A stretch of DNA of 32,000 nucleotides, taken from Methylophaga frappieri. Its GTDB lineage: Bacteria > Pseudomonadota > Gammaproteobacteria > Nitrosococcales > Methylophagaceae. The position numbers were made by a program, and so were the translations under genes. Location of the stretch: positions 2,340,001-2,372,000 of the forward strand of contig NC_017856.1 in the NCBI RefSeq assembly GCF_000260965.1. The letters run 5' to 3'. This document shows positions 4,371-31,158 of the stretch, in pieces; the first letter of the stretch is position 1; every line of letters starts with the position of its first letter. The notes under the pieces were generated by a model. The model was not told the origin of the DNA. It saw nothing but the letters and a program-made list of their open reading frames with translations, and made no database searches.

Positions 4371-4408
4371 AAACCCGCTTACTGGAAACGGTAAGCGGGT
4401 TTTTCTTT
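4371..4408 (+). terminator. Rho-independent terminator after flagellin 1
   Basis: Perfect 12-bp stem: AAACCCGCTTAC (4371-4382) pairs with GTAAGCGGGTTT (4391-4402). The loop is 8 nt and a T-rich tail TTTTCTTT follows. It lies 25 nt after the stop codon. Confidence 0.85.
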
Positions 4409-4525: not shown

Positions 4526-4552
4526 TAAAGTTTAGTTCAGCCGGGTCGTTAA
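4526..4552 (+). promoter_or_regulatory. Sigma28 (FliA) promoter for flagellin 2
   Basis: TAAAGTTT-N11-GTCGTTAA versus the consensus TAAAGTTT-N11-GCCGATAA. The -35 element is 8/8, the -10 element is 6/8, and the spacing is exact. It sits about 90 nt upstream of the ATG at 4641. Confidence 0.7.
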
Positions 4553-9260: not shown

Positions 9261-10730
9261 ATGAGCAGTAATCAAGTGCTGGTTATCGAAGCCGACGCCA
9301 ATCGTCGCGAGACCTTATCGACGCTAATCACATTTATTAACTGTCATCCGGTTCTGGTCGCGCATCCACCGGAATGGGGAGCCGCAGTCGATGACCTGGA
9401 TAATATTGCCATGGTTATTATCGGGGATTGTGGTAGTGACCAACAGACAAGAGAATTACTTCGCTTGCTGGTCAATCATGAGTCCCGGCTACCGGTATTT
9501 ACCCTCGAACACGAACAACAAGCAGAGTCTGATTTCCCTGGCATCATTGGCGCTTTGCAATATCCAGTCAAATATCCCCAACTTAGCAATGCCTTGCAAC
9601 AGGCGACGGTATATCGTGGGCAACAGGAGAAAGCAGATCGCGCGCACCTGAATTTTCGTTTGCTGGTGGGTAACAGCCTGGCAATGAAACAGGTGCAACG
9701 GATGATAGATCAGGTGTCCGATTCAGAAGCAAATGTTTTGATTCTGGGTGAATCCGGCACAGGGAAAGAGGTCGTTGCGCGTAACTTGCATTATTTTTCT
9801 TCTCGCCGTGATAAACCTTTTGTGCCAGTGAATTGTGGTGCGATTCCGGGCGAGTTGTTGGAGAGTGAGCTTTTCGGTCACGAAAAAGGCGCTTTTACGG
9901 GAGCGATTACGGCGCGCAAAGGTCGATTTGAACTGGCTGAGGGCGGCACTTTGTTTCTGGATGAAATTGGCGATATGCCGATGCCGATGCAGGTGAAATT
10001 GTTGCGTGTCCTCCAGGAAAGAACGTTTGAACGCGTGGGTAGTACCAAAACACAACAAGCAAATGTCCGGGTGATCGCCGCCACACATCGTAATCTTGAA
10101 AGGCATATTGCAGATGGCTTGTTCCGTGAAGATTTGTTTTATCGGCTGAATGTGTTTCCGATTGAAATGCCAGCATTACGCGAGCGCCCGGAGGATATTC
10201 CGTTGCTCGTTTATGAAATCATCCAGCGTATCGAACACGAAAATCGAGGCTCAGTCAGATTAACGACCGCCGCCATGGCCGCACTATGCCGCTATAACTG
10301 GCCAGGCAATGTCAGGGAATTGGCCAATGTGATCGAAAGGCTAGTGATTTTATACCCGTACGATCTGGTTGATTTTGACCAATTACCGGAAAAATATCGA
10401 ATTGCAGGTGAGGCCTTGCCAGCGCATGTCAGCGCAGTGATAGCAGCCCGTCCGGAACCGGCATTGGCTAGACAAGTCAACAAAGAGCCTGCTTCGACTG
10501 AGGTGGAAGCCGAGGTGACAACCCTATCTTCCCCAGCGATCGCGAATGCATTACCGGAAGAGGGGCTGGACCTCAAAGAACATTTGGCACAATTGGAATT
10601 TTTCTTGATCCGGCAAGCGCTGGATGATGCGGCCGGCGTCGTGGCACACGCGGCACAACGACTCAAAATGCGGCGTACAACACTGGTTGAGAAAATGCGT
10701 AAACATGGTATCCAGCGTGAAGGTGAATAA
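9261..10730 (+). CDS. fleQ: Sigma54-dependent master flagellar regulator FleQ/FlrA (FleQ-type N-domain, AAA+, Fis-type HTH)
   Basis: 489 aa. Walker A is GESGTGKE, the sigma54-contact loop is GAFTGA, and Walker B is [10 protein letters not shown]. Other conserved blocks are [10 protein letters not shown] and [21 protein letters not shown]. The C-terminal HTH is [21 protein letters not shown]. Confidence 0.93.
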
Positions 10731-10741
10731 CAGGATGGTGA

Positions 10742-10755
10742 GTCATTTTTTTGAC
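10742..10755. promoter_or_regulatory. Putative FleQ box / upstream activating sequence (UAS) upstream of the fleS sigma54 promoter
   Basis: GTCATTTTTTTGAC, identical to 9162-9175. It is centred about 75 nt upstream of the predicted fleS transcription start. Confidence 0.45.
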
Positions 10756-10797
10756 TAAAAGTTATCTAACCAATTGTAATTGTTGGTAAAAATTTAA

Positions 10798-10813
10798 GGG
10801 CATATTTTTTGCA
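10798..10813 (+). promoter_or_regulatory. Sigma54 -24/-12 promoter of fleS-fleR
   Basis: GGGCATattttTTGCA, with GG at 10799-10800 and GC at 10811-10812. It lies 36 nt upstream of the fleS ATG. Confidence 0.7.
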
Positions 10814-10848
10814 GACAGTAGTAAAACCTGATACTGGAGTCAAAAAGT

Positions 10849-11958
10849 ATGCGTGCCAACTGGACTGAGCCTTACCCGCCTTATCGAAAAGAGACGACCT
10901 TGACGGTTGTCGAGACCGATGACAGTCGTTCTGCCAGCCGAATGAGCCGATTGCTAACCGTGTTACCGGCAGGTGTAATTGTTCTTGATGCTGCAGGTCG
11001 AATTCAGGAATACAATCCGGCAGCGATTGATTTGCTGGGTAAGCCATTGCAATACGAACCTTGGATCACGGTAATTAACCGAGCATTTCAACCTAGACCA
11101 GATGATGGTCACGATGTGTCTTTGCGTGATGGTCGCCGCGTCCATATTTCAACCAATCCGCTCGAAGGTGAACCGGGACAGATCGTGTTACTTCAAGAGG
11201 TGACCGAAACGCGTCGTCTGCAGAGCAAGGTCTCACATCTGCAACGGTTATCTGCCATGGGTGAAATGGCGGCACGGTTAGCCCATCAGATCCGTACTCC
11301 TTTATCATCGGCCATGTTGTATCTGTCGCCGTTATTGAAAGCAGAATCAGGTAGCACACAACAACGCTATGCGCAGCGCCTGCATGACAGTCTCAGCCAT
11401 ATGGAGCAGCTGGTTAGAAATATGCTGGCCTTTTCGCGTGGCGATATGGCCGCGCCAGCGCCTGTTTCGGTTGCAGAGTTACTCGAAGAAACAGCACGCC
11501 AGTTTCAAAATAATATGGCTACGGATCACTATCAGTTACAACTGAATAATCAAGTGAACGATGGCTATGTTTTTGGGAGTCAAACGGCGCTGTCCAGTGC
11601 CCTGTTAAATTTATTGAATAATGCGCGTGAGGCGTGTGGTGCAGCAGGCCAGATTATCCTTAGCGCCGAGTTGATTCGGGATGAGGCTGAGCAATATTGT
11701 ATTGAAATCAGTGTCGAGGACAATGGGGTCGGTATAGCTGAAGCCGATTATGAAAAAATCCTGCAGCCCTTTTATACCACTCGGTCGGCTGGTACGGGGC
11801 TGGGGCTGGCGGTGGTGCAATCGATTGCCAAGGCACATAAAGGCATATTGTGGCTGGATAGTGAACTGGGCGAGGGCAGTACCTTTAGCCTACGTTTGCC
11901 GGTTTATCAAGCGGTTCAATCATCTCGCGAATCTGTTTGCCAAGGAGCGGCCGTATGA
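10849..11958 (+). CDS. fleS: Cytoplasmic PAS-histidine kinase FleS/FlrB
   Basis: 369 aa with no obvious TM segment. The PAS-like region is LLTVLPAGVIVLDAAGRIQEYNPAAIDLLG. The H-box is MGEMAARLAHQIRTPLSS, the N-box is LLNLLNNAREA, and the G-boxes are DNGVGI and GTGLGLAVV. Its stop overlaps the fleR start (ATGA). Confidence 0.92.
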   Translation: MRANWTEPYPPYRKETTLTVVETDDSRSASRMSRLLTVLPAGVIVLDAAGRIQEYNPAAIDLLGKPLQYEPWITVINRAFQPRPDDGHDVSLRDGRRVHISTNPLEGEPGQIVLLQEVTETRRLQSKVSHLQRLSAMGEMAARLAHQIRTPLSSAMLYLSPLLKAESGSTQQRYAQRLHDSLSHMEQLVRNMLAFSRGDMAAPAPVSVAELLEETARQFQNNMATDHYQLQLNNQVNDGYVFGSQTALSSALLNLLNNAREACGAAGQIILSAELIRDEAEQYCIEISVEDNGVGIAEADYEKILQPFYTTRSAGTGLGLAVVQSIAKAHKGILWLDSELGEGSTFSLRLPVYQAVQSSRESVCQGAAV

Positions 11959-13316
11959 CTCAATCAAAAATAATTGTTGTCGAAGATGATGCTTCGTTAC
12001 GGCTCGCTGTTTGCGATACGCTGGAGATGGCTGGTTATCAGGTAATTGCTATGGAGGAAGGACAAAAAGCACTGGAGCAACTTCGCGTTGATGGCGTGGG
12101 GCTATTGCTCAGTGATTTGCAAATGCAGCCCATGGATGGTCACACGTTGCTAAAAAAAGCACGCAAACTGCAGCCGGCATTACCCGTGGTGTTGATGACC
12201 GCTTACGGTACGGTAAAAAGCGCCGTTGATGCGATGCAGGACGGGGCTTGTGATTATTTGATGAAGCCTTTTGATGCCGATGAGCTGCTTGCTCGGGTTG
12301 CGCGCTATATTCGTACAGTTCCAGCCACGAATGAGGTTGTTGCCGAGGCACCAAGTTCACGACATTTGCTTGGACTTGCTGAACGTGTCGCTGCCAGCGA
12401 TGCCACGGTTTTGCTGAATGGTGAAAGTGGCACAGGCAAGGAAGTGCTTGCCCGTTATATTCACCGCCATTCCCCGCGTCATGATGCACCTTTTGTGGCA
12501 ATTAACTGTGCGGCAATCCCAGAGTCAATGCTGGAAGCCACTCTGTTCGGCTATGAAAAAGGGGCGTTTACTGGTGCCAGCCAGGCCTATGCAGGCAAGT
12601 TTGAGCAAGCACATCAAGGCACCTTGTTGCTGGACGAAATTTCTGAAATGGATTTATCGTTGCAGGCCAAGTTGCTGCGTGTTTTACAGGAGCGTGAAGT
12701 CGAACGTCTTGGTGGCAGGAAGGTAATTCCGTTAAATGTACGCGTCATTGCCACCACCAACCGAACCTTAAATGAAGAAGTACAGGCAGGTCGGTTTCGT
12801 GAGGACTTATTCTATCGGCTTAATGTATTCCCCCTGCAATTATTACCGTTGCGTGAACGGCGTGAAGATATTCTACCGTTGGCGAATCAATTGCTGAACC
12901 GGCATTGCCAACAACAGCAAACACCTTTGCCGCAACTGGGTGAAGAAGCACAACAACGTTTGCTCAGCCACGATTGGCCGGGCAATGTGCGTGAGCTGGA
13001 TAATGTCATGCAGCGTAGTTTGATACTACAACAAGGCAACCTGATCACGGCGCAGGATTTAGCATTTCAGGCAATGAGTCAGAAAATGACGGTGTTGCCG
13101 GATGTCAGCATGCCGACAGCCGCGCTGGCGGAAGATAATATTGAAGGTGATTTACGCCACCATGAACAGCGCCATATTTTGGAAACATTGGCGCGCTATC
13201 AAGGTAGCCGGCGTAAAGCAGCCAAGGATTTAGGGATTAGTGAGCGCACACTGCGTTACAAAATATCCCGGTTTCGTGAGCAAGGTATTGCCATTCCGGG
13301 TAAAGCTGGCAAGTAA
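11955..13316 (+). CDS. fleR: Sigma54-dependent response regulator FleR/FlrC (REC, AAA+, HTH)
   Basis: The REC domain has IIVVEDD and LLLSDLQMQPMDG. The AAA+ domain has [14 protein letters not shown] and LLLDEISEM. The HTH is AAKDLGISERTLRYKI. Start set at ATG 11955 (MTQSKIIVVEDD), which overlaps the fleS stop, rather than the ORF-track 11937. Confidence 0.93.
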   Translation: MTQSKIIVVEDDASLRLAVCDTLEMAGYQVIAMEEGQKALEQLRVDGVGLLLSDLQMQPMDGHTLLKKARKLQPALPVVLMTAYGTVKSAVDAMQDGACDYLMKPFDADELLARVARYIRTVPATNEVVAEAPSSRHLLGLAERVAASDATVLLNGESGTGKEVLARYIHRHSPRHDAPFVAINCAAIPESMLEATLFGYEKGAFTGASQAYAGKFEQAHQGTLLLDEISEMDLSLQAKLLRVLQEREVERLGGRKVIPLNVRVIATTNRTLNEEVQAGRFREDLFYRLNVFPLQLLPLRERREDILPLANQLLNRHCQQQQTPLPQLGEEAQQRLLSHDWPGNVRELDNVMQRSLILQQGNLITAQDLAFQAMSQKMTVLPDVSMPTAALAEDNIEGDLRHHEQRHILETLARYQGSRRKAAKDLGISERTLRYKISRFREQGIAIPGKAGK

Positions 13317-18489: not shown

Positions 18490-18936
18490 ATGACGCGCGC
18501 CCAAAAGTTGTTACCGGTTATTGAACTGGCAAAACAGGATGCTGAGGCGACGCAGCTAAAGCTGGCTCAAGCGAATCGGCAGCTGCATCGTGAACAGCAG
18601 CAGTTACATGAGCTGCAACACTATCGTGAGGAGTATTTGCAGCGATTTCGTCGCGTTGATCCGCAGATTGTCTCAGCTCGCAAAGCACTGGATCTGCGCG
18701 CATTTCTGGTGCAGCTTGAACAGGCGATTGTATTGCAGGAGCAACAGGTACAAAAGCAGCATAATCAGGTGCTGCAACAACAGCAGGCCTGGCGTCAGGC
18801 ACGTCAGAAAATGCAAGCTATGCAAACCCTGATGGAGCGTTACCAGCAACATGAAGTACTGTCCGCATCGCGTCGAGAGCAAGTCTTAAATGATGAGTTC
18901 AGCGTGAGTTTATGGCGGCGCCAGCGTAAGCGTTAA
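18490..18936 (+). CDS. fliJ: Flagellar export chaperone/stalk protein FliJ
   Basis: 148-aa Gln/Arg-rich coiled-coil ORF (LLPVIELAKQDAEATQLKLAQANRQL...YREEYLQRF...FSVSLWRRQRKR). It lies immediately after fliI. Confidence 0.88.
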   Translation: MTRAQKLLPVIELAKQDAEATQLKLAQANRQLHREQQQLHELQHYREEYLQRFRRVDPQIVSARKALDLRAFLVQLEQAIVLQEQQVQKQHNQVLQQQQAWRQARQKMQAMQTLMERYQQHEVLSASRREQVLNDEFSVSLWRRQRKR

Positions 18937-18954
18937 TTTTTTCAGTAATCACAC

Positions 18955-18981
18955 TACGGAATTTCGGGGTTGGGTCGATAA
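18955..18981 (+). promoter_or_regulatory. Weak sigma28-like promoter upstream of the STAS-che module
   Basis: TACGGAAT-N11-GTCGATAA. The -10 element is 7/8 to GCCGATAA with correct spacing. The -35 element is only 4/8. Confidence 0.25.
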
Positions 18982-18988
18982 CCTGACT

Positions 18989-19315
18989 ATGCAGGATAGC
19001 CAATATAATCAGATTGCGTTACCAGAACGGCTGACCATCGCTGAAGCGCCAGCTTGTTACGAGCGCCTTGTAGCGGCCTTGGTCGCTGGTCAGCCAGTTT
19101 CGGTGGATGCGAGTCAGGTCACGCGTGTTGACGCGGCCGGTTTGCAGTTACTACTGGGTTTTGCCAGGCAGGCGCAACAATTATCGCTGCCTTTGCAATG
19201 GCAGGCCATCACGCCAAGTCTGCAAGAGGCGGTAGACATTGCCGGTCTGCATGACGAGATCGTTTTTAATCTTAACAAGCAGGAAGAACATGATCAGAAT
19301 ATTGACGGTCGATGA
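18989..19315 (+). CDS. STAS-domain protein (MlaB / anti-sigma-antagonist fold), non-phosphorylatable type
   Basis: 108 aa. The block VSVDASQVTRVDAAGLQLLLGFARQAQQ matches the STAS core (compare SpoIIAA ...DSSGL... and MlaB ...VDTGGLALLL). No good SD precedes the ATG. The 3' end overlaps cheY by 26 nt. Confidence 0.7.
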   Translation: MQDSQYNQIALPERLTIAEAPACYERLVAALVAGQPVSVDASQVTRVDAAGLQLLLGFARQAQQLSLPLQWQAITPSLQEAVDIAGLHDEIVFNLNKQEEHDQNIDGR

Positions 19316-19655
19316 TTCGGCTTCATTACGCCAAATGATGATGATTACCCTGCAAAATGCCGGTTTTCAGGTTACGCAGGCCGAAGATGGTCAACAGGCA
19401 ATGCTGTTGGCCTCGTCGCAGCCATTTGATCTGGTATTGACCGATTACAATATGCCAATTATGAATGGTCCGATGCTCATTGAACGGTTGCGTACCTTGC
19501 CTGGTTACACCTACACGCCCATGTTATTGCTGACAACAGAAACCGCAGATAGCAAAAAAGCCGCTGGGCGTGCTGCCGGGGCGACGGGGTGGATCCAAAA
19601 ACCTGTGGATGGTCACAAGCTTCTCGACACCATCGATAAGCTGCTTAACGGTTGA
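19290..19655 (+). CDS. cheY: CheY-like single-domain response regulator
   Basis: 121 aa with a full receiver signature: D8/D9 (TVDDS), D52 (LVLTDYNMP), T82 (LLLTTE) and K104 (IQKP). Start set at ATG 19290 (AGGAAG at 19281-19286) rather than the ORF-track 19239. Confidence 0.9.
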   Translation: MIRILTVDDSASLRQMMMITLQNAGFQVTQAEDGQQAMLLASSQPFDLVLTDYNMPIMNGPMLIERLRTLPGYTYTPMLLLTTETADSKKAAGRAAGATGWIQKPVDGHKLLDTIDKLLNG

Positions 19656-19661
19656 GATACT

Positions 19662-21431
19662 ATGGCAACCAATGATGTCCTTGCTCGCCAATTATTTGAT
19701 GAAGAGAGTCGGGATTTATTGACTCAGATTGAACAAGACTGGCAGCAGGCAAAACCCGCTGATCCGGCGTGGCGCGCACAAATGCAACGTCAGTTGCATC
19801 AATTAAAAGGCATGGCCGTCAGTTTTCAACTCAGCGAAGCGGGTGATTGCTGCCATCAGTTAGAGTCGTTGCTGGAAACGTTTACCCAGACGACGCTGAG
19901 ACCCCATCAGGTGGTGCAGATCAGTCAGTTGTTATCGCAACTTCACGATCGGATATTAACGCCAACTGCGGCTGTCCAGACGACGGAAGTCAACCAACCG
20001 GAAATTTCTGCCTGGCAAAGCTGGCAGATACAGTTTGAGCCAGCAGCTGATTTTTTTCGCCATGGTCAGGATCCGTTATTTTATCTTAAACAGCTGTCCG
20101 AGTTAGGTGAAATGGTGGCCGAGCCGCACTTTAGTGCCCCGGACTTTGCTGAATTTGAGGTAGGTCGTTGTTATCTGCAATGGCATATCCAGTTGCGCAC
20201 AGCCAGTGATGAAACCGCCATACGGGCCATCTTTGACTGGGTGACAGACCGATGTCATTTGCAAATCAGGCCGATGACGGCGCAAATGGGACAAATGCCA
20301 TCAACCACCGCAAACCGACATCAGGAAAAAGACCAGCTGTTGTCCTTGCGTCGCCGCCAGGATCAATGTCATCACCTGCTGCTCCAATTGGAGAACAGTC
20401 TGGGCAGCCTCCCACCAGCGAGTATGATGTTGTTGAGCCAGTTACGGCAGCTGGGCCAGCAAAATCGACTTGATGTGCAGAAGCTTTTACTTAGGCCGTT
20501 GCAAATCGCCTATCAGCGGCTGCCTTCCCTATCGCATACCCTGGCAGGTCAAACCGGTAAACAGATTACACTGACGGTGCCAAAAACGGACTTCCTGATA
20601 CCGCCCGAGGTGGTAGAAACGTTGGGTGATGTGCTGATACAACTCCTGCGTAACGCGGTTGCTCATGGTATCGAAAAACCGCGACAACGACATCAGAGGA
20701 ATAAGTCTGAGACGGGACAAATTAAAATTCGACAGACTTTAGATAAATTACAGCTGACCTTGTCTGTGCAGGATGATGGTTGTGGCTTGAATGAGACACA
20801 AATTCGCGCCGCGGCGTCGGAGCTGAACCTGCCAGAAAATACTGCTGCCAGCACGTTGATTTTTGAGGCGGGACTGAGTACTGCTGACGCGGTAGATTTA
20901 ATTTCAGGTCGTGGCGTCGGGTTGGATTTGGTACGCCAGAAAGTCGCCGATCTTCAAGGTCAGATCCAGGTGACCAGCACACCTGAGCAGGGATGTGAGT
21001 TTGTGGTTAACGTCCCGTTACAACGAACAATTCTAACCTGCCAACGCGTGACTGTGGCGAGCTTGAATTATTTGTTTCTGGCAACGGATATTGTCGCAAC
21101 CTATCCTTTGCAAGCCTTTGAACAGCGTCATATTACCGGACGTGGCTGGTATGTACAGGTTGAGCAGACCTGGTTGCCATTATGCGACTTGCGCCAGCGA
21201 TTACAGCTCTCTTCAGAAACCAGTGCGGATGCCATCATCGTGGTGTTAAAAGCCGGCAAGCGCCGTCTGGCCGTCACCGTCGACCAACTGGATACACCAA
21301 CCGCATTTTGCTTGTGTCGCGCGGATCAGCATTTACCGTTATCGCCAGCGGTTGTTGGCTTGGCAACGACTGCTGAGGGATTACCTGCTTTGTTGCTGGA
21401 TGTCGGACTATTATTTTCGGAGCGATCATAA
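19662..21431 (+). CDS. cheA: CheA-type histidine kinase (Hpt/P1, unknown linker, degenerate P3, P4 kinase, P5 CheW-like)
   Basis: 589 aa. The Hpt motif is QLHQLKGMAVSF with His46 at nt 19797-19799. The N-box is LIQLLRNAVAHGIE, G1 is DDGCGL, the F-box is IFEAGLST and G2 is SGRGVGLDLV. The C-terminal 130 aa are CheW-like. Confidence 0.9.
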   Translation: MATNDVLARQLFDEESRDLLTQIEQDWQQAKPADPAWRAQMQRQLHQLKGMAVSFQLSEAGDCCHQLESLLETFTQTTLRPHQVVQISQLLSQLHDRILTPTAAVQTTEVNQPEISAWQSWQIQFEPAADFFRHGQDPLFYLKQLSELGEMVAEPHFSAPDFAEFEVGRCYLQWHIQLRTASDETAIRAIFDWVTDRCHLQIRPMTAQMGQMPSTTANRHQEKDQLLSLRRRQDQCHHLLLQLENSLGSLPPASMMLLSQLRQLGQQNRLDVQKLLLRPLQIAYQRLPSLSHTLAGQTGKQITLTVPKTDFLIPPEVVETLGDVLIQLLRNAVAHGIEKPRQRHQRNKSETGQIKIRQTLDKLQLTLSVQDDGCGLNETQIRAAASELNLPENTAASTLIFEAGLSTADAVDLISGRGVGLDLVRQKVADLQGQIQVTSTPEQGCEFVVNVPLQRTILTCQRVTVASLNYLFLATDIVATYPLQAFEQRHITGRGWYVQVEQTWLPLCDLRQRLQLSSETSADAIIVVLKAGKRRLAVTVDQLDTPTAFCLCRADQHLPLSPAVVGLATTAEGLPALLLDVGLLFSERS

Positions 21432-21808
21432 TGGCAAGTTCAGCATGGATGTTATGCCAGCGGGCAGGGTTTTGTTTTGCCATCCCATCAATATGGTCAC
21501 GTGATTGCCTGCCGATGCCAGCGATTGCATTGTTACCGGATCCGCCCCCAGCTGTTCGAGGACTTTGGCATTATGATGATGAAGCGATTCCAGTGCTGGA
21601 TTTGTCAATGATCGACCAGCCTGCAATTCCAACGGCGTCACATATCGTGATGATATCCACGCCAATGCGGGTAGCACTTTGTTGTGATTCTCCACCCGTG
21701 TTTTCAAATAAGCAGGCAGACGCGGGGTTTATTGAGCAGGAAGCATCTTACCAGGTGCTCGACAGCGGTTTTATACAGCGCATTTTAACCGGGGATGGGC
21801 CGGGATGA
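21431..21808 (+). CDS. cheW: CheW-like coupling protein (short)
   Basis: 125 aa. The block GFCFAIPSIWSRDCLPMPAIALLPDPPPAVRGLWHYDDEAIPVLDLS fits the CheW pattern (FaiP...V.e....i..vP..P..v.G..n.rG.iipVlDL). The start overlaps the cheA stop (TAATG). Confidence 0.8.
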   Translation: MASSAWMLCQRAGFCFAIPSIWSRDCLPMPAIALLPDPPPAVRGLWHYDDEAIPVLDLSMIDQPAIPTASHIVMISTPMRVALCCDSPPVFSNKQADAGFIEQEASYQVLDSGFIQRILTGDGPG

Positions 21809-22515
21809 CCAACGTTTCACGGGTCATTGCTGTCATGAATCAAACCCATGATGTCGGCAAAACCTTTATTACTGCCAATCTTGCTGATGCGTTACATCGT
21901 CAGGGTAAATCGGTACTGGTGCTGGATATGGATCCGCAGGCGGATCTGACACGCAGTTTTGACGTGCCATCATCGCAATTTGGCGTATCAGCATGGTTGC
22001 GTGGCGAGCGATCATTTGAGCAGGTCTCCCGTAGCTTACGGGATGGATTGACACTGATTCCGGCCGATACGGCGTTAACCCAATTTGATCAGCAGACTGA
22101 AACAAAGCGCCAATTCGGTAACCGATTATCGACTTTATTACCCCATTATGCCGGTCAGTACGATTTGGTGTTACTTGACTGCGCCGCCATATCCGGTTTG
22201 TTAGGCAGTAATGCTGTGCTTGCTGCTTCCGACATGCTGTTGCCGGTGACCGGTGATGCCACCGCACTGCAGGGAATGCTGGACATGTTGCCCGTAATCC
22301 GCCGAGTTAGTTTGCATCGACACAAAGCCTTGCGCGTCTGGCTGTGTTTGAACCGGTTACCCCGTGGCAGTGATTATGCAGACAAACTGACGGCGATGAT
22401 GCGTAGTTATTTTCCTAAACGCTTGCTACAGACCGTTATTTATGAGGCTGATACCGCGCAGACCACTGTTTACCAGTCCTTGGCTCAAGACTTGTTAGCA
22501 GGCCGGACTGCCTAG
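21805..22515 (+). CDS. ParA/MinD-family P-loop protein with degenerate deviant Walker A
   Basis: 236 aa. The sequence VIAVMNQTHDVGKTFITANLADAL...VLVLDMDPQADLT...YDLVLLDCAA fits the ParA/Soj scaffold. The expected KGG of KGGxGKT is replaced by THD (nt 21844-21852). The start overlaps the cheW stop (ATGA). Confidence 0.85.
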   Translation: MTNVSRVIAVMNQTHDVGKTFITANLADALHRQGKSVLVLDMDPQADLTRSFDVPSSQFGVSAWLRGERSFEQVSRSLRDGLTLIPADTALTQFDQQTETKRQFGNRLSTLLPHYAGQYDLVLLDCAAISGLLGSNAVLAASDMLLPVTGDATALQGMLDMLPVIRRVSLHRHKALRVWLCLNRLPRGSDYADKLTAMMRSYFPKRLLQTVIYEADTAQTTVYQSLAQDLLAGRTA

Positions 22516-22641: not shown

Positions 22642-22657
22642 TGGCACCCTGTTTGCA
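22642..22657 (+). promoter_or_regulatory. Sigma54 -24/-12 promoter of fliK
   Basis: TGGCACcctgtTTGCA is a perfect match to TGGCAC-N5-TTGCA. It lies 36 nt upstream of the fliK ATG. Confidence 0.8.
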
Positions 22658-22692: not shown

Positions 22693-24006
22693 ATGAGCAT
22701 GTTGCAGTTATTGAACACCACGACTGATGTGGGCAAATCGGCTGGCGATAGCAAAACGAGTAAAGCAGATACGTCTGCGGCAGAAGGGTTTCAAGCGGCT
22801 TTCAAACAAGAATTTGATAGCAATAAACTGGTCAAAGCTGCATCAGAAAAAGAATCTGGCGGGCTTGGTGAAGCGGCAATAAAGGATGCGGGTCAAAAAA
22901 GCGGCAAAAAATTGCCGGCTGATATGGCTAGCGAGAAGGCGGTTGAGGCGAGTGCGAAAACACGGCCCGGTAATGACCTGCCCGATGTAGCCACAGATGA
23001 GGTGATGACCGAGATTGTGTCCCTGTTAAAAGCAGCAGGCATATCAATTTCACCGGAACAGGCTGCCGAGTTGCTCGACAGTGATATGCAAGATATTGAG
23101 TCACTCCGGTTGGTTTTTGCCCGTGATTCTGATGACTTGTTGATGTCAGATACCGAGTCAGATCAGGCTTTGGCATTGGTGCTACAGCAACTTACTCCCC
23201 TCATGACTGAGCAAAAGCAAGCATCTGCCACCCCATTCTCTGTGATGGCGAGTACGCCAATGCCTCTCGCCGTGCCACAATCTGCTGCGACGGCCCTGGC
23301 AGACGTGCTGGCGCCGATATTGACGTCCGTTGAAGAGAGTGGATTAACCGTAAAAACGGCAATGCAAAATTGGTTGAACCAGCAAAATATGGATAAGCCG
23401 AACCTGACCGCTGCACAGATAGCGGGATTACTGGTGGCGCAGTCACGCCAAGTGCAACCTAGCTCTGACCAAAGCAGTCTGTCTGGCGGTGCGATAGCCA
23501 CCATTAGCAATTCTGCTCCCGCTGCGAGTTCCGGCGTAGCGGCCATGACCACGTCATCCACCACGACATTTACGGTACAACCCCAACTTGATAATACGGC
23601 ATGGGGTCGCGTTGTTTCCAGCCGGGTGAGTTATATGGCCAAAGAGGGTATACAGCAGGCAGAATTGCGTCTGAATCCAGCCAGTCTGGGACCAGTTGAA
23701 GTCCGGTTGCAACTTCAACAAGATCAAGCGAGCGTGACATTTCTGGCGCAAAATCAGGCAACACGTGAGGCGCTTGAACAAGCTTTACCCCGTTTACGAG
23801 ATAGTCTTGCGGAGCAGGGCCTATCTTTGACGCAAGCGGATGTTGGTCAGCAACAAGCGGATCAGTCTGCGGAAAGAGAAAGCAGTATGGAAAATGCGCA
23901 TTTAACTCAAGTTTCAGTCACAATTGACGATAGTCATGGTGAGCAGGAAAGAGAACCGGATTCAGTCATCGAGCATGATGATGGCAGACTGAGCCTTTAT
24001 GCTTAA
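22693..24006 (+). CDS. fliK: Flagellar hook-length control protein FliK
   Basis: 437 aa. The N-terminal two-thirds are low-complexity and Ala/Ser/Gln-rich. The conserved FliK C-terminal domain is QAELRLNPASLGPVEVRLQLQQDQASVTFLAQNQATREALEQALPRLRDSLAEQGLSL. Confidence 0.92.
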   Translation: MSMLQLLNTTTDVGKSAGDSKTSKADTSAAEGFQAAFKQEFDSNKLVKAASEKESGGLGEAAIKDAGQKSGKKLPADMASEKAVEASAKTRPGNDLPDVATDEVMTEIVSLLKAAGISISPEQAAELLDSDMQDIESLRLVFARDSDDLLMSDTESDQALALVLQQLTPLMTEQKQASATPFSVMASTPMPLAVPQSAATALADVLAPILTSVEESGLTVKTAMQNWLNQQNMDKPNLTAAQIAGLLVAQSRQVQPSSDQSSLSGGAIATISNSAPAASSGVAAMTTSSTTTFTVQPQLDNTAWGRVVSSRVSYMAKEGIQQAELRLNPASLGPVEVRLQLQQDQASVTFLAQNQATREALEQALPRLRDSLAEQGLSLTQADVGQQQADQSAERESSMENAHLTQVSVTIDDSHGEQEREPDSVIEHDDGRLSLYA

Positions 24007-24047: not shown

Positions 24048-25241
24048 GTGTTTAAACTAGAAAATTATTCGCTTAGAAAGCGCATGTATATTGTGGCAGG
24101 ATTTGGCATCATCGGTTTGTTGCTGTTTGCCTTGCTCAGTTGGTACATGCAGCGTCAGGCACTGACCGCTGAGTCCAAACTGCTATTCATTCTGGCCTAC
24201 TTGGTTGTCAGCGGCGGCTTGTTAATGTTTGTGGCACATTATATCGGTCGTTTTGGCGACAAGCGTGCGACAACGTTGGTAGCCGGTATTCAGAATATTA
24301 AACAAGGCGATCTGACTCAGAAAGTCGCTATCCCGGGACGTAGCGACTTTAGCTGGATGGCTTTTGAGCTGGATAGTGCACGAAAAAATGTGGCTAATCT
24401 GGTGCATACACTGACTGGCGGTATTGAACAATTAAATACCGCGACAAAAAACATGACCTCGATTAGTAAAGAGACGGTATCCGGGGTTCTCAAACAACAG
24501 GCGGAAACAGACCAAGTCGCGACCGCTATGAATGAAATGACCGCATCAGTGCAAGAAGTGGCAAGAACTGCGTCAAATGCCGCTGAAGCGGCACGCAATG
24601 CGGATAATGAAGCTAAAGCGGGTAAAAAAGTTGTGCTGCAAACCATGACCTCCATTGATTCGCTGGCCAGTGAAGTGGAAAAAGCCGCCGATACCATCAG
24701 CAGTCTCGAAGCAGATATCAACAACATTGGTGCCATCATTGATGTCATTCGTGGTATCACGGAACAAACGAATTTGCTGGCTTTAAATGCGGCGATCGAA
24801 GCGGCCAGGGCGGGGGAGCATGGTCGTGGCTTTGCGGTTGTCGCCGATGAAGTTCGCACGCTGGCTTCTCGCACGCAATCGTCAACCCATGAAATTGAAG
24901 AAATGATCGAACGGCTTCAAATTGGCGCCAGAGAAGCAGTGAAAGTCATGAATGACAGCCGTGAAAAAGCCAGAAATAGTGTCGACATGGCTGAAAGTGC
25001 CGGTGCGGCACTGGATACCATCACTGCGATGATCAGCACAATGGATGAAATGAGCGCACAAATTTCGAGTGCGGCAAATGAGCAGTCGGCCGTTGCAGAA
25101 AATATTAACCGGGGCATTGTTGAGATTAGCCAGATTGCCGATCATACCGCCGATGGTGCGCGTGAGGCATCAGCAGCAGTTGATACACTAAACAGCTTGT
25201 CCGGCCAGTTGCAGGAAGCCTCGGGCAAATTCAAAATTTAA
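24048..25241 (+). CDS. Methyl-accepting chemotaxis protein with a TM hairpin and no periplasmic ligand-binding domain
   Basis: 397 aa with a GTG start and AGGAG at 24036-24040. Two TM segments (about aa 14-33 and 45-65) are separated by roughly 11 residues. A HAMP-like segment follows, then the conserved tip [38 protein letters not shown]. Confidence 0.93.
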
Positions 25242-25266: not shown

Positions 25267-25291
25267 AAGCCCGCTGATGCGGGCTTTTTTT
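25267..25291. terminator. Bidirectional rho-independent terminator between the MCP gene and pyrF
   Basis: AAGCCCGC (25267-25274) pairs with GCGGGCTT (25279-25286) around the loop TGAT, followed by T5. On the minus strand an A-run precedes the stem. It overlaps the pyrF stop codon region. Confidence 0.85.
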
Positions 25292-30573: not shown

Positions 30574-31158
30574 TCAGACCGCATTGTATCGAAAACAGCT
30601 TTCAACATGATCGTTGATCATGCCCGTTGCCTGCATGAGTGCGTAGATTACGGTACTGCCGACAAATTTGAAGCCACGCTTTTTTAAATCCTGGCTAAGC
30701 GCATCACTTTGTTTACTGGTTGCTGGGATAGCTTGTTCGTGCTGCCACTGGTTTTGTATGGGGGCGTGATTGACAAAACCCCATATATAGTGAGTGAAGC
30801 TGCCAAATTCCTGCTGTATTGCCATAAAAGCGCGCGCATTGACAATCGCTGAATACACTTTCAATTTATTGCGAATGATTCCTTTATTCTTTAGTAAGGC
30901 ATCGATTTTGGACTGATCGTATTCGGCGATTTTGGTGTAATCGAAATTATCAAAAGCTTTGCGAAAGTTTTCTCGTTTGCGAAGGATGGTTATCCAGCTG
31001 AGACCGGCCTGAAAGGTTTCCAGTAATAAAAATTCAAACATCGTGCTGTCATCGCGTACTGGTACACCCCACTCTTTGTCATGGTAAGCAACGTAGAGCG
31101 GATCCGTTCCACACCATTGACAGCGTATTTTTACGGATTTCGGATTGCTTGCGGTCAT
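30574..31158 (-). CDS. tag: DNA-3-methyladenine glycosylase I
   Basis: 194 aa. Blocks RCQWCGTDPLYVAYHDKEWGVP, FLLLETFQAGLSWITILRKRENFR and KKRGFKFVGSTVIYALMQATGMINDH align closely with E. coli Tag as recalled. Confidence 0.93.
   Translation of the reverse strand: MTASNPKSVKIRCQWCGTDPLYVAYHDKEWGVPVRDDSTMFEFLLLETFQAGLSWITILRKRENFRKAFDNFDYTKIAEYDQSKIDALLKNKGIIRNKLKVYSAIVNARAFMAIQQEFGSFTHYIWGFVNHAPIQNQWQHEQAIPATSKQSDALSQDLKKRGFKFVGSTVIYALMQATGMINDHVESCFRYNAV

Follow-up and report, generated by a model that had tools for sequence, protein, structure and literature searches.

A probable reduced descendant of an F7-type chemosensory gene cluster between fliJ and fliK of Methylophaga frappieri

Between fliJ and fliK, the polar-flagellum gene cluster of the gammaproteobacterium Methylophaga frappieri contains five genes that encode, in order, a STAS protein, a CheY-like receiver (REC), a CheA-like kinase, a CheW-like protein and a ParA-like protein. 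They lie in a stretch of 32,000 nucleotides (nt) of contig NC_017856.1 (RefSeq assembly GCF_000260965.1, positions 2,340,001 to 2,372,000 of the forward strand), which is referred to here as the window and numbered from its first letter. The five genes, termed the module below, are probably a reduced and lineage-specific descendant of an F7-type che cluster, which would have kept the phosphotransfer core running from His46 of the kinase to Asp52 of the receiver and lost its receptor and adaptation functions. The module and its boundaries are as follows.

18953-18981, + strand: putative sigma28 (FliA)-type promoter; -10 element conserved in relatives at a fixed distance from the ATG
18989-19315, + strand: STAS-only protein, 108 amino acids (aa); Pfam STAS_2, E 2.6e-19; GenBank AFJ03486
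19290-19655, + strand: CheY-like REC, single domain, 121 aa; Pfam Response_reg, E 1.5e-22
19662-21431, + strand: divergent CheA kinase, 589 aa; Pfam Hpt, HATPase_c and CheW
21431-21808, + strand: putative degenerate and shortened CheW descendant, 125 aa; Pfam CheW at 20.5 bits, together with a homology chain
21805-22515, + strand: ParA/Soj-like P-loop protein, 236 aa; Pfam AAA_31/CbiA, E 3e-28
22642-22656, + strand: sigma54 promoter of fliK, the downstream boundary of the module; TGGCACCCTGTTTGC, an exact match to TGGCAC-N5-TTGC

The STAS gene begins after a gap of 52 nt from the fliJ stop at 18936 and overlaps by 26 nt with the REC gene, whose ATG at 19290 is preceded by an AGGAAG ribosome-binding site. 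The REC and CheA-like genes are 6 nt apart, the CheA-like and CheW-like genes share TAATG, the CheW-like and ParA-like genes share ATGA, and all five tightly coupled reading frames are intact. Upstream lie flgK, flgL, two flagellin genes, flaG, fliD, fliS, fliT, fleQ, fleS, fleR and fliE to fliJ, and downstream fliK and a chemoreceptor gene are followed by pyrF, tgt, yajC, secD and secF. All five module proteins have exact matches in the genome of M. frappieri JAM7; in GenBank they are AFJ03486, AFJ03487, AFJ03488 and AFJ03491, plus AFJ03490 for the CheW-like protein, which is called there at 47 aa and in RefSeq (WP_041366715) at 125 aa; the CheA-like protein is labelled in RefSeq only as an 'ATP-binding protein'. 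Among window open reading frames of at least 100 aa there is no cheB, cheR, cheZ, cheD or cheV, and Pfam finds neither a PP2C nor an anti-sigma-type serine-kinase domain in the five module proteins. An earlier interpretation made from the DNA alone, the sequence-only reading, had described five genes packed between fliJ and the fliK sigma54 promoter at 22642, with these coordinates, overlaps and domains and without the five che genes named; open reading frames, Pfam matches and the exact promoter consensus agree with it. Its view that the module falls outside the canonical motor-directed chemotaxis systems with adaptation, and that such a gene set is uncharacterised, is likewise supported, and a literature search on chemotaxis in Methylophaga returned nothing relevant.

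The kinase retains the domain plan of CheA, with P1/Hpt at aa 1-100 (containing His46), a P2-like domain at 119-205, a P3 hairpin at 219-276, P4 at 277-452 and P5 at 453-589. Pfam recognises Hpt (E 4.6e-11), HATPase_c (E 4.7e-17) and, in P5, CheW (30.8 bits against a cut-off of 23.5). The sequence-only reading had credited the protein with His46 and with intact N, G1, F and G2 boxes. This stands for His46, which is invariant in 81 aligned CheA sequences, and for G1 (DDGCGL), F (LIFEAGLST) and G2 (GRGVGLD), but not for the N box, which reads QLLRNAVAHGIE where ordinary CheAs have HLVRNSxDHGxE and thus carries two substitutions, H to Q and D to A, with the N, H, G and E kept. An AlphaFold2 model built on the 81-sequence alignment has a mean predicted local distance difference test score (pLDDT) of 87.2 and contains all five domains, including a four-helix-bundle P1 and, at aa 119-204, the beta-alpha-beta-beta-alpha-beta pattern of the P2 fold, a domain that is shared with the nearest ordinary CheAs. 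P3 is modelled as a helical hairpin (aa 219-276, pLDDT 65-88), with a poorly conserved first helix and no match to Pfam H-kinase_dim. Foldseek matches the model best to the CheA of the E. coli core signalling unit (E 2.6e-26) and to Thermotoga maritima CheA, and P4 superposes on CheA P4 structures with template-modelling scores of up to 0.89. Within the family, identity is 47-52% in P1, the P2-like domain and P4, where 34-37% of columns are invariant, and 31-32% in P3 and P5, where 19% (P3) and 11% (P5) of columns are invariant, which indicates that the phosphotransfer parts are constrained and the dimerisation and receptor-coupling parts relaxed. P5 has lost the GATILGDG motif, and the NCBIfam CheA models score the protein at 147-165 bits against cut-offs of 793-950.

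Close relatives of the kinase are few. Among 5.8 billion proteins only 13 were found (42-45% identity), all on Methylophaga-like contigs, and the next matches, at 25-30%, are ordinary CheAs. When two CheA peptides specific to the family were used to scan 185,579 species genomes, the close family turned up only in five Methylophaga species represented by metagenome-assembled genomes (MAGs); the other matches were ordinary or unrelated kinases. The more diverged loci L028-L031 were missed by these peptides and were recovered through a search with the ParA-like protein, which returned further versions of the module, always after fliJ. Below about 35% identity the matches of that search were ordinary ParA-ParB partition proteins. 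The loci compared are listed below.

L031 (metagenome relative): CheA 682 aa, with the Pfam dimerisation domain; CheW 165 aa; ParA 252 aa, KGGVGKT; receptor a 793-aa globin-PAS-HAMP-MCP protein; CheR, CheD and CheB present
L033 (metagenomic variant): MCP, ParA (KGG), a 138-aa STAS, CheR, CheD, CheB and a second CheD, then fliK and fliLMNOPQ
L028/L029 (M. nitratireducenticrescens MAG and a Logan-assembled contig): CheA 629 aa; CheW 152 aa; ParA 238 aa; receptor gene encoding a 449-aa globin protein, MCPsignal 29.5 bits (below threshold); CheR, CheD and CheB absent
L030 (diverged fliJ-linked form): CheA 624 aa; CheW 147 aa; ParA 239 aa; receptor position (9717-10454) with a 245-aa remnant, MCPsignal 16.9 bits; CheR, CheD and CheB absent
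L001-L006 (the five sister-clade Methylophaga MAG species): CheA 585-593 aa; CheW 128 aa; ParA 237-238 aa; a 213-aa globin; CheR, CheD and CheB absent
Window (M. frappieri): CheA 589 aa; CheW 125 aa; ParA 236 aa; no receptor; CheR, CheD and CheB absent

In the window the receptor gene is replaced by a gap of 177 nt, and tblastn detects no remnant of a globin or receptor. Outside this series, the genes of ordinary CheAs in Stenotrophomonas (L025), Shewanella sediminis (L026) and strain JAM-7 (L027) stand in clusters that run STAS_2, Response_reg, CheA, CheW (directly or after a receptor gene) and MCP, and CheR, (CheD) and CheB follow the MCP in two of these three contexts. Because STAS-CheY-CheA-CheW opens ordinary che clusters, the gene order of the window is explained by descent. 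The sequence-only reading had called for a check of the synteny fliJ-STAS-cheY-cheA-cheW-parA-fliK in other genomes; relatives do occupy the same slot, and they form a series of reductions from a complete che cluster. In comparison with the STAS-headed clusters (L025-L027 and L031), the module shares the order STAS-CheY-CheA-CheW and a CheA that can be aligned end to end; it differs in lacking the receptor, CheR, CheD and CheB, in a CheA that is only about 25% identical, in a degenerate CheW and P5, in an added ParA-like gene with a broken KGG, and in its place inside a flagellar gene cluster.

The receptor position of the relatives has features of its own. The 245-aa protein of L030 has no significant Pfam match and aligns to globin-MCPs with the proximal His replaced (EEYY for GERH); it may be a non-heme globin remnant. 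The 213-aa globin lies between the ParA-like gene and fliK (L001 12854-13495, L003 12821-13453, L005 11727-12368, L006 2733-3374), and it seems to have the distal Gln, B10 Tyr and proximal His. The last ~60 residues of this globin align to the tip of the chemoreceptor hairpin, and it may represent a miniaturised globin-coupled receptor.

The CheW-like protein has a Pfam CheW score of 20.5 bits, below the cut-off of 23.5, and its direct alignment to canonical CheW by hhalign is weak (E 4e-4, probability 34%). Its descent from CheW is supported, however, by a chain of intermediates that links E. coli CheW to L031 (1e-49), L031 to L028 (2e-14), L028 to L030 (3e-18), L030 to L001 (2e-9) and L001 to the window (6e-12). 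Other residues stand at the positions of Arg62 and Glu38 of E. coli CheW, both important for binding the receptor (PMC9855816), and part of the second subdomain is deleted.

The class of the ancestor is indicated by the complete L031 system, whose CheA and CheW are 44% and 49% identical to those of E. coli over their whole length. E. coli Tar, which has 36 heptads, can be aligned without indels to the receptors from L031, S. sediminis and JAM-7; these end in WDDF, WNEF or WEEF, resembling the Tar pentapeptide NWETF. Taken together, these similarities place the ancestor among E. coli-like systems, which are treated as F7 in work on Shewanella oneidensis (PMC9855816), and the F7 assignment of the ancestral system accordingly stands by similarity to E. 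coli proteins and not by class models. Of its parts, a 36-heptad receptor, CheR and CheB are absent from the window and present, with CheD, in L031. One receptor gene does lie nearby, as context and not as part of the module.

24048-25241, + strand: transmembrane chemoreceptor (MCP) with a full-length match to the CtpM model

This receptor, 385 aa in GenBank and 397 aa in RefSeq, carries two 14-residue insertions relative to Tar (36H), one in each arm, which places it in the 40-heptad class. Receptors with 40 heptads are typical of the main F6 chemotaxis pathway in related bacteria. It is 80-86% conserved in relatives both with and without a receptor of the module's own, with a dN/dS (ratio of non-synonymous to synonymous substitution) of 0.03, and is for that reason unlikely to be the input of the module. 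The earlier description of the system as driven by a receptor array thus does not hold up, as the module's own receptor is lost, the receptor-coupling signatures of CheW and P5 are gone and the adjacent MCP belongs to another length class.

The STAS and REC proteins bear on another claim of the sequence-only reading, which was kinship with the HptB-HsbR-HsbA partner switch of pseudomonads. That a STAS, receiver and Hpt trio occupies the same slot there was correct, as Pseudomonas putida has the order fliJ-hsbA-hsbR-hptB-fliK (10.1101/2021.08.29.457346); in this species FliA activates the hsbA promoter to a modest degree, and a sigma54 promoter precedes fliK (10.1101/2021.08.29.457346, 10.1101/2024.11.25.625174). 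The likeness in slot and domain order does not extend to the proteins. The window STAS, which consists of STAS_2 only and heads the gene set immediately upstream of cheY-cheA-cheW, shares 34-35% identity (E 1e-12 to 3e-13) with the STAS proteins that belong to the che clusters of Shewanella and strain JAM-7, whereas BLAST gave no match to the one HsbA-type STAS available, encoded in L027 beside an HsbR-type regulator. The phosphorylation site is D-S-S in HsbA-type proteins, D-T-A-G in most che-type STAS and D-A-A-G-L in the window, so that Ala49 sits where HsbA/SpoIIAA-type proteins have the phosphorylated Ser. Since the STAS of the complete L031 system also has D-A-A-G, phosphorylation at this position is no feature of the subfamily. 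Alignment to E. coli CheY bears out the claimed active-site set of the receiver, D8, D9, D52, T82 and K104, and places W101 at the equivalent of Y106. Complete STAS-headed clusters have CheYs with 53-58% identity to REC, compared with 30% for E. coli CheY and 24% for the HsbR-type receiver; the first figure suggests that the target of this CheY is unchanged.

The module therefore differs from HptB-HsbR-HsbA in the subfamily of its STAS, which lacks a phosphorylatable Ser, in a receiver without PP2C or kinase output, and in an Hpt that is fused into a full CheA and does not stand alone. On these comparisons the resemblance is apparently positional and not one of descent. The fliJ-fliK slot appears to have been taken independently by two unrelated STAS-headed modules, the hsbA-hsbR-hptB genes of Pseudomonas and this che cluster, so that homology is poorly predicted from gene order by itself. 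As to the related claim that an HsbA-type protein acts on FlgM, P. putida HsbA was reported neither to affect FliA activity nor to bind FlgM (10.1101/2024.11.25.625174). In strain JAM-7 the cluster STAS-CheY-CheA-CheW-MCP-CheR-CheD-CheB-MCP is directly followed by an HsbA-like STAS and an HsbR-like REC-PP2C protein (L027 17197-18376). S. oneidensis che1, with CrsA/CrsR, has a similar arrangement, and in other genomes a partner switch can thus be physically linked to an E. coli-like che system.

The ParA-like protein is the best conserved of the module and matches Soj/ParA structures (E about 1e-16), with overall family similarity to AAA_31. Its Walker A region reads NQTHDVGKTF (MNQTHDVGKTF) in place of the NQKGGVGKTT of Soj (1WCV), with KGG replaced by THD, and so departs from the deviant Walker A signature xKGGxGK[ST]; the Walker B region has DCAA instead of DCPPS, and a C-terminal segment of 14 residues is missing. 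Every one of the Methylophaga forms has THD, and KGG is present in L031 and L033, the complete clusters. Published mutant work on Soj and MinD implies that loss of the signature lysine, together with bulky residues at the glycine positions, should prevent formation of the ATP-sandwich dimer. A ParA-family gene beside a CheW-like gene in a che cluster is also found in the ParC/ParP systems of Vibrio and Pseudomonas, and the complete form of the module further places ParA beside a receptor without a Pfam-annotated transmembrane domain, as in ParA-like array-positioning systems. PpfA/TlpT of Rhodobacter sphaeroides is another system of this kind. Unlike ParC and PpfA, the window protein has THD for KGG, and the putative cargo receptor with a basic N-terminal peptide is gone. 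In L031 and L033 the gene immediately after parA (9759-12140 and 1349-1765, respectively) opens with a basic peptide and then DPL(A/S)W (MAEKKQAMGDDPLSWL, MTRKKSSIGFDPLAWM), which may be a ParA-contact peptide and is missing from the reduced Methylophaga forms.

A promoter of the late flagellar, sigma28 type may precede the module. The proposed element consists of an upstream part, ACTACGGAA (18953-18961), a spacer of 12 nt and a -10 sequence, GTCGATAA (18974-18981), which is one mismatch from the consensus GCCGATAA and ends exactly 7 nt before the STAS ATG. The same layout, ACTGCGGAA, N12, GCCGATAA or GCCGATAT, 7 nt and ATG, is found in L001, L003, L005 and L030, and is kept although synonymous sites are saturated and the remaining spacer cannot be aligned between genomes. 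As the octamer with at most one mismatch occurs 63 times in the window against 25 expected and is not significant by itself, the weight of the element lies in its conserved position only. There is no Shine-Dalgarno sequence between the -10 element and the STAS ATG, and with the -10 ending only 7 nt before that ATG the mRNA led by STAS is probably leaderless. These observations revise what the sequence-only reading had said of transcription. The gap between fliJ and STAS, described as free of a terminator hairpin, is adjoined by a weak hairpin with a T-run at 18917-18944 that overlaps the end of fliJ, so that read-through from fliE-J is possible yet not needed; the sigma28-like motif, described as merely weak, has gained from its conservation in relatives; and co-transcription only from the fliE sigma54 promoter is at odds with a conserved sigma28-type -10 element directly before the STAS gene. 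The site at 13307, TGGCAAGTAATCTGCA, has two mismatches with correct GG-N10-GC spacing. At the other end, the sigma54 promoter of fliK is kept in every relative examined, and in seven it stands 51-72 nt upstream of the gene. The interval from the ParA-like gene to fliK showed no terminator, and a strong one lies 3' of the MCP gene at 25267-25286.

Ratios of non-synonymous to synonymous substitution (dN/dS) were calculated by the Nei-Gojobori method for pairs within the globin-bearing sister clade. They are lowest for the ParA-like protein (0.02-0.07) and REC (0.03-0.09), followed by STAS (0.09-0.17), the globin (0.09-0.21), the CheW-like protein (0.12-0.26) and the CheA-like protein (0.17-0.25), with 0.14-0.21 for FliK and 0.03-0.05 for FliJ and the MCP. 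Relative-rate tests revealed no consistent acceleration of M. frappieri over the globin-bearing lineage; CheA reached p=0.02 with a single one of the three outgroups, and no other module gene was significant. On both counts the module genes do not behave as pseudogenes, and the family shows no variation in the catalytic motifs or in the CheY active site. The CheA-like, CheW-like and STAS proteins are nevertheless only 30-43% identical to their nearest relatives, whereas flanking genes stand at 83-92%. For FliK itself (22693-24006), Tajima's relative-rate test gives significantly faster evolution in the M. frappieri lineage than in its sister (p=2e-5 and 0.005 for the two outgroups used).

The descent of the module from a che cluster is well supported by these comparisons, and the kinase-to-regulator core is conserved in its ATP-binding domain, His46, folded P2-like domain and complete CheY active site. 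The following course of events would account for the locus. A complete, oxygen-sensor-linked form, consisting of STAS-CheY-CheA-CheW-ParA, a globin/PAS/HAMP receptor and CheR-CheD-CheB, would have occupied the fliJ-fliK slot of Methylophaga and related gammaproteobacteria. The lineage of M. frappieri would then have lost the receptor and adaptation enzymes, with the receptor-coupling signatures of CheW and P5 disappearing and the ParA-like protein losing the signature needed for ATP-dependent dimerisation. In what remains, the CheA-like protein would autophosphorylate on His46 and, with no control by receptors and no adaptation, donate the phosphate to Asp52 of CheY, the STAS protein would dock on the kinase and promote CheY binding, as CheS does in Sinorhizobium, and would not act as an anti-sigma antagonist, and the ParA-like and CheW-like proteins could serve as non-catalytic scaffold or localisation partners. 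Expression would occur late in flagellar assembly from the module's own sigma28-type promoter and a leaderless mRNA. The likeliest outputs of phosphorylated CheY (CheY-P) are the flagellar motor or, with CheY serving as a phosphate sink, a tuning of the main chemotaxis pathway.

The role proposed for STAS is modelled on the CheS-CheY1-CheA-CheW arrangement of Sinorhizobium meliloti and other alphaproteobacteria, in which, as in the window, a STAS-only gene of ~100 aa lies directly upstream of cheY-cheA-cheW. Binding of CheS was reportedly mapped by Dogra et al. in 2012 to residues 163-256 of CheA. CheS consists of STAS only and is encoded beside cheY1 in the alphaproteobacterial che cluster, for example atu0515 and atu0516 (PMC12654446); it binds CheA and tightens the binding of CheY1 to CheA about 100-fold (PMC4214558; PMC12654446). 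By analogy, the window STAS is the positional equivalent of CheS. The S. meliloti system differs in having receptors and adaptation enzymes, both of which the module lacks.

Several observations weigh against an active reduced pathway of this kind. A profile built from ten che-type STAS proteins recovered STAS proteins of gammaproteobacterial che clusters only and did not reach alphaproteobacterial CheS, and CheS of S. meliloti works with two CheYs, the second of which is motor-directed, whereas the window encodes one. The N box of the CheA-like protein carries the H-to-Q and D-to-A substitutions, which may affect catalysis; P3 is poorly conserved, and CheA autophosphorylation is normally dimer-dependent. 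Free CheA without receptors has low activity. The -35 region of the proposed promoter matches the TAAAG consensus poorly, and purifying selection was measured in the globin-bearing sister clade and not in M. frappieri itself.

Other explanations have to be set against the descent and retained activity proposed here. The sequence-only reading saw in the module a chemosensory version of HptB-HsbR-HsbA, in which STAS would act on FlgM or another anti-sigma factor as a flagellar checkpoint. It can point to the shared slot and the equal order STAS, REC and Hpt, to the HsbA/HsbR-type pairs linked to some F7 clusters (L027, and S. oneidensis che1 with CrsA/CrsR) and to speculation in a review that CheS may contact sigma or anti-sigma factors. 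We nevertheless regard it as very unlikely, as the gene order is accounted for by che-cluster descent, STAS resembles che-cluster STAS with no detectable similarity to the one HsbA-type STAS compared and has Ala for the phosphorylatable residue even in complete L031, REC is 24% identical to the HsbR-type receiver against 53-58% to cluster CheYs, the five proteins contain no PP2C or anti-sigma-type serine-kinase domain, and HsbA of P. putida neither affected FliA activity nor bound FlgM. Even more improbable is that the module works in receptor-coupled chemotaxis, with the MCP adjacent to fliK or other MCPs of the cell as its receptors and adaptation enzymes encoded elsewhere. A well-conserved MCP gene two genes downstream in the same direction and a P5 that still exceeds the Pfam CheW threshold would fit it; however, that MCP has 40 heptads where the ancestral module receptors have 36, it is present irrespective of the module's own receptor, and the CheW-like protein is without the receptor-binding Arg/Glu pair. 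The conservation of the MCP at 85%, against 30-32% for the CheW-like protein and P5, further argues against a shared interface.

The module could also be a functionless relic in the last stage of decay that has merely not yet been deleted. Progressive loss of components across the relatives, replacement of the CheW Arg62/Glu38 equivalents and of the ParA KGG, the low identity of the CheA-like, CheW-like and STAS proteins beside well-conserved flanking genes, and scores far from the cut-offs of the curated NCBI CheA models are all in keeping with decay. Against this stand five intact and coupled frames, catalytic motifs and a CheY active site that are invariant in the family, sister-clade dN/dS values of 0.02-0.26 with the ParA-like protein and REC as constrained as FliJ and the MCP, a M. 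frappieri lineage without consistent acceleration, constraint that is specific to domains (P1, P2 and P4 kept, P3 and P5 relaxed) and a conserved promoter element, and we consider a relic unlikely. We regard as similarly unlikely the idea that the module is a receptor-independent device, in which CheA would be controlled by the strongly conserved ParA-like protein, devoid of its ATPase signature, and by the remnant CheW in place of chemoreceptors, and would feed a CheY/STAS pair made only late in flagellar assembly, with the sister-clade globin as a mini-receptor for O2 or NO; if so, it could, for example, signal where the flagellum is or that it is complete, or maintain CheY-P at a basal level.

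The STAS-headed F7-type che clusters themselves are already known, and the module is an uncharacterised reduced variant of them. If it is active, it would represent a natural CheA-CheY pair that works without chemoreceptors or adaptation enzymes, and its relatives would show which array parts can be trimmed under selection, the receptor being reduced to a globin with a hairpin tip, CheW and P5 degenerating together and ParA losing its ATPase signature. The consequence for Methylophaga biology is probably modest, the main value of the locus being a natural series of chemosensory reduction.

Two further observations concern other parts of the window. The tandem flagellin genes appear to use different sigma factors, as flaA (2508) is preceded by a sigma54-type site, TGGCGT-N5-TTGCT, at 2389-2404 and flaB (4599) by a sigma28-type site, TAAAGTTT-N11-GTCGTTAA, at 4526-4552, with a hairpin terminator between the two genes at about 4375-4405. 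Downstream of secF, on the - strand at 30574-31158, lies a gene for 3-methyladenine DNA glycosylase I (Pfam Adenine_glyco, E 5e-84) that is unrelated to the module.

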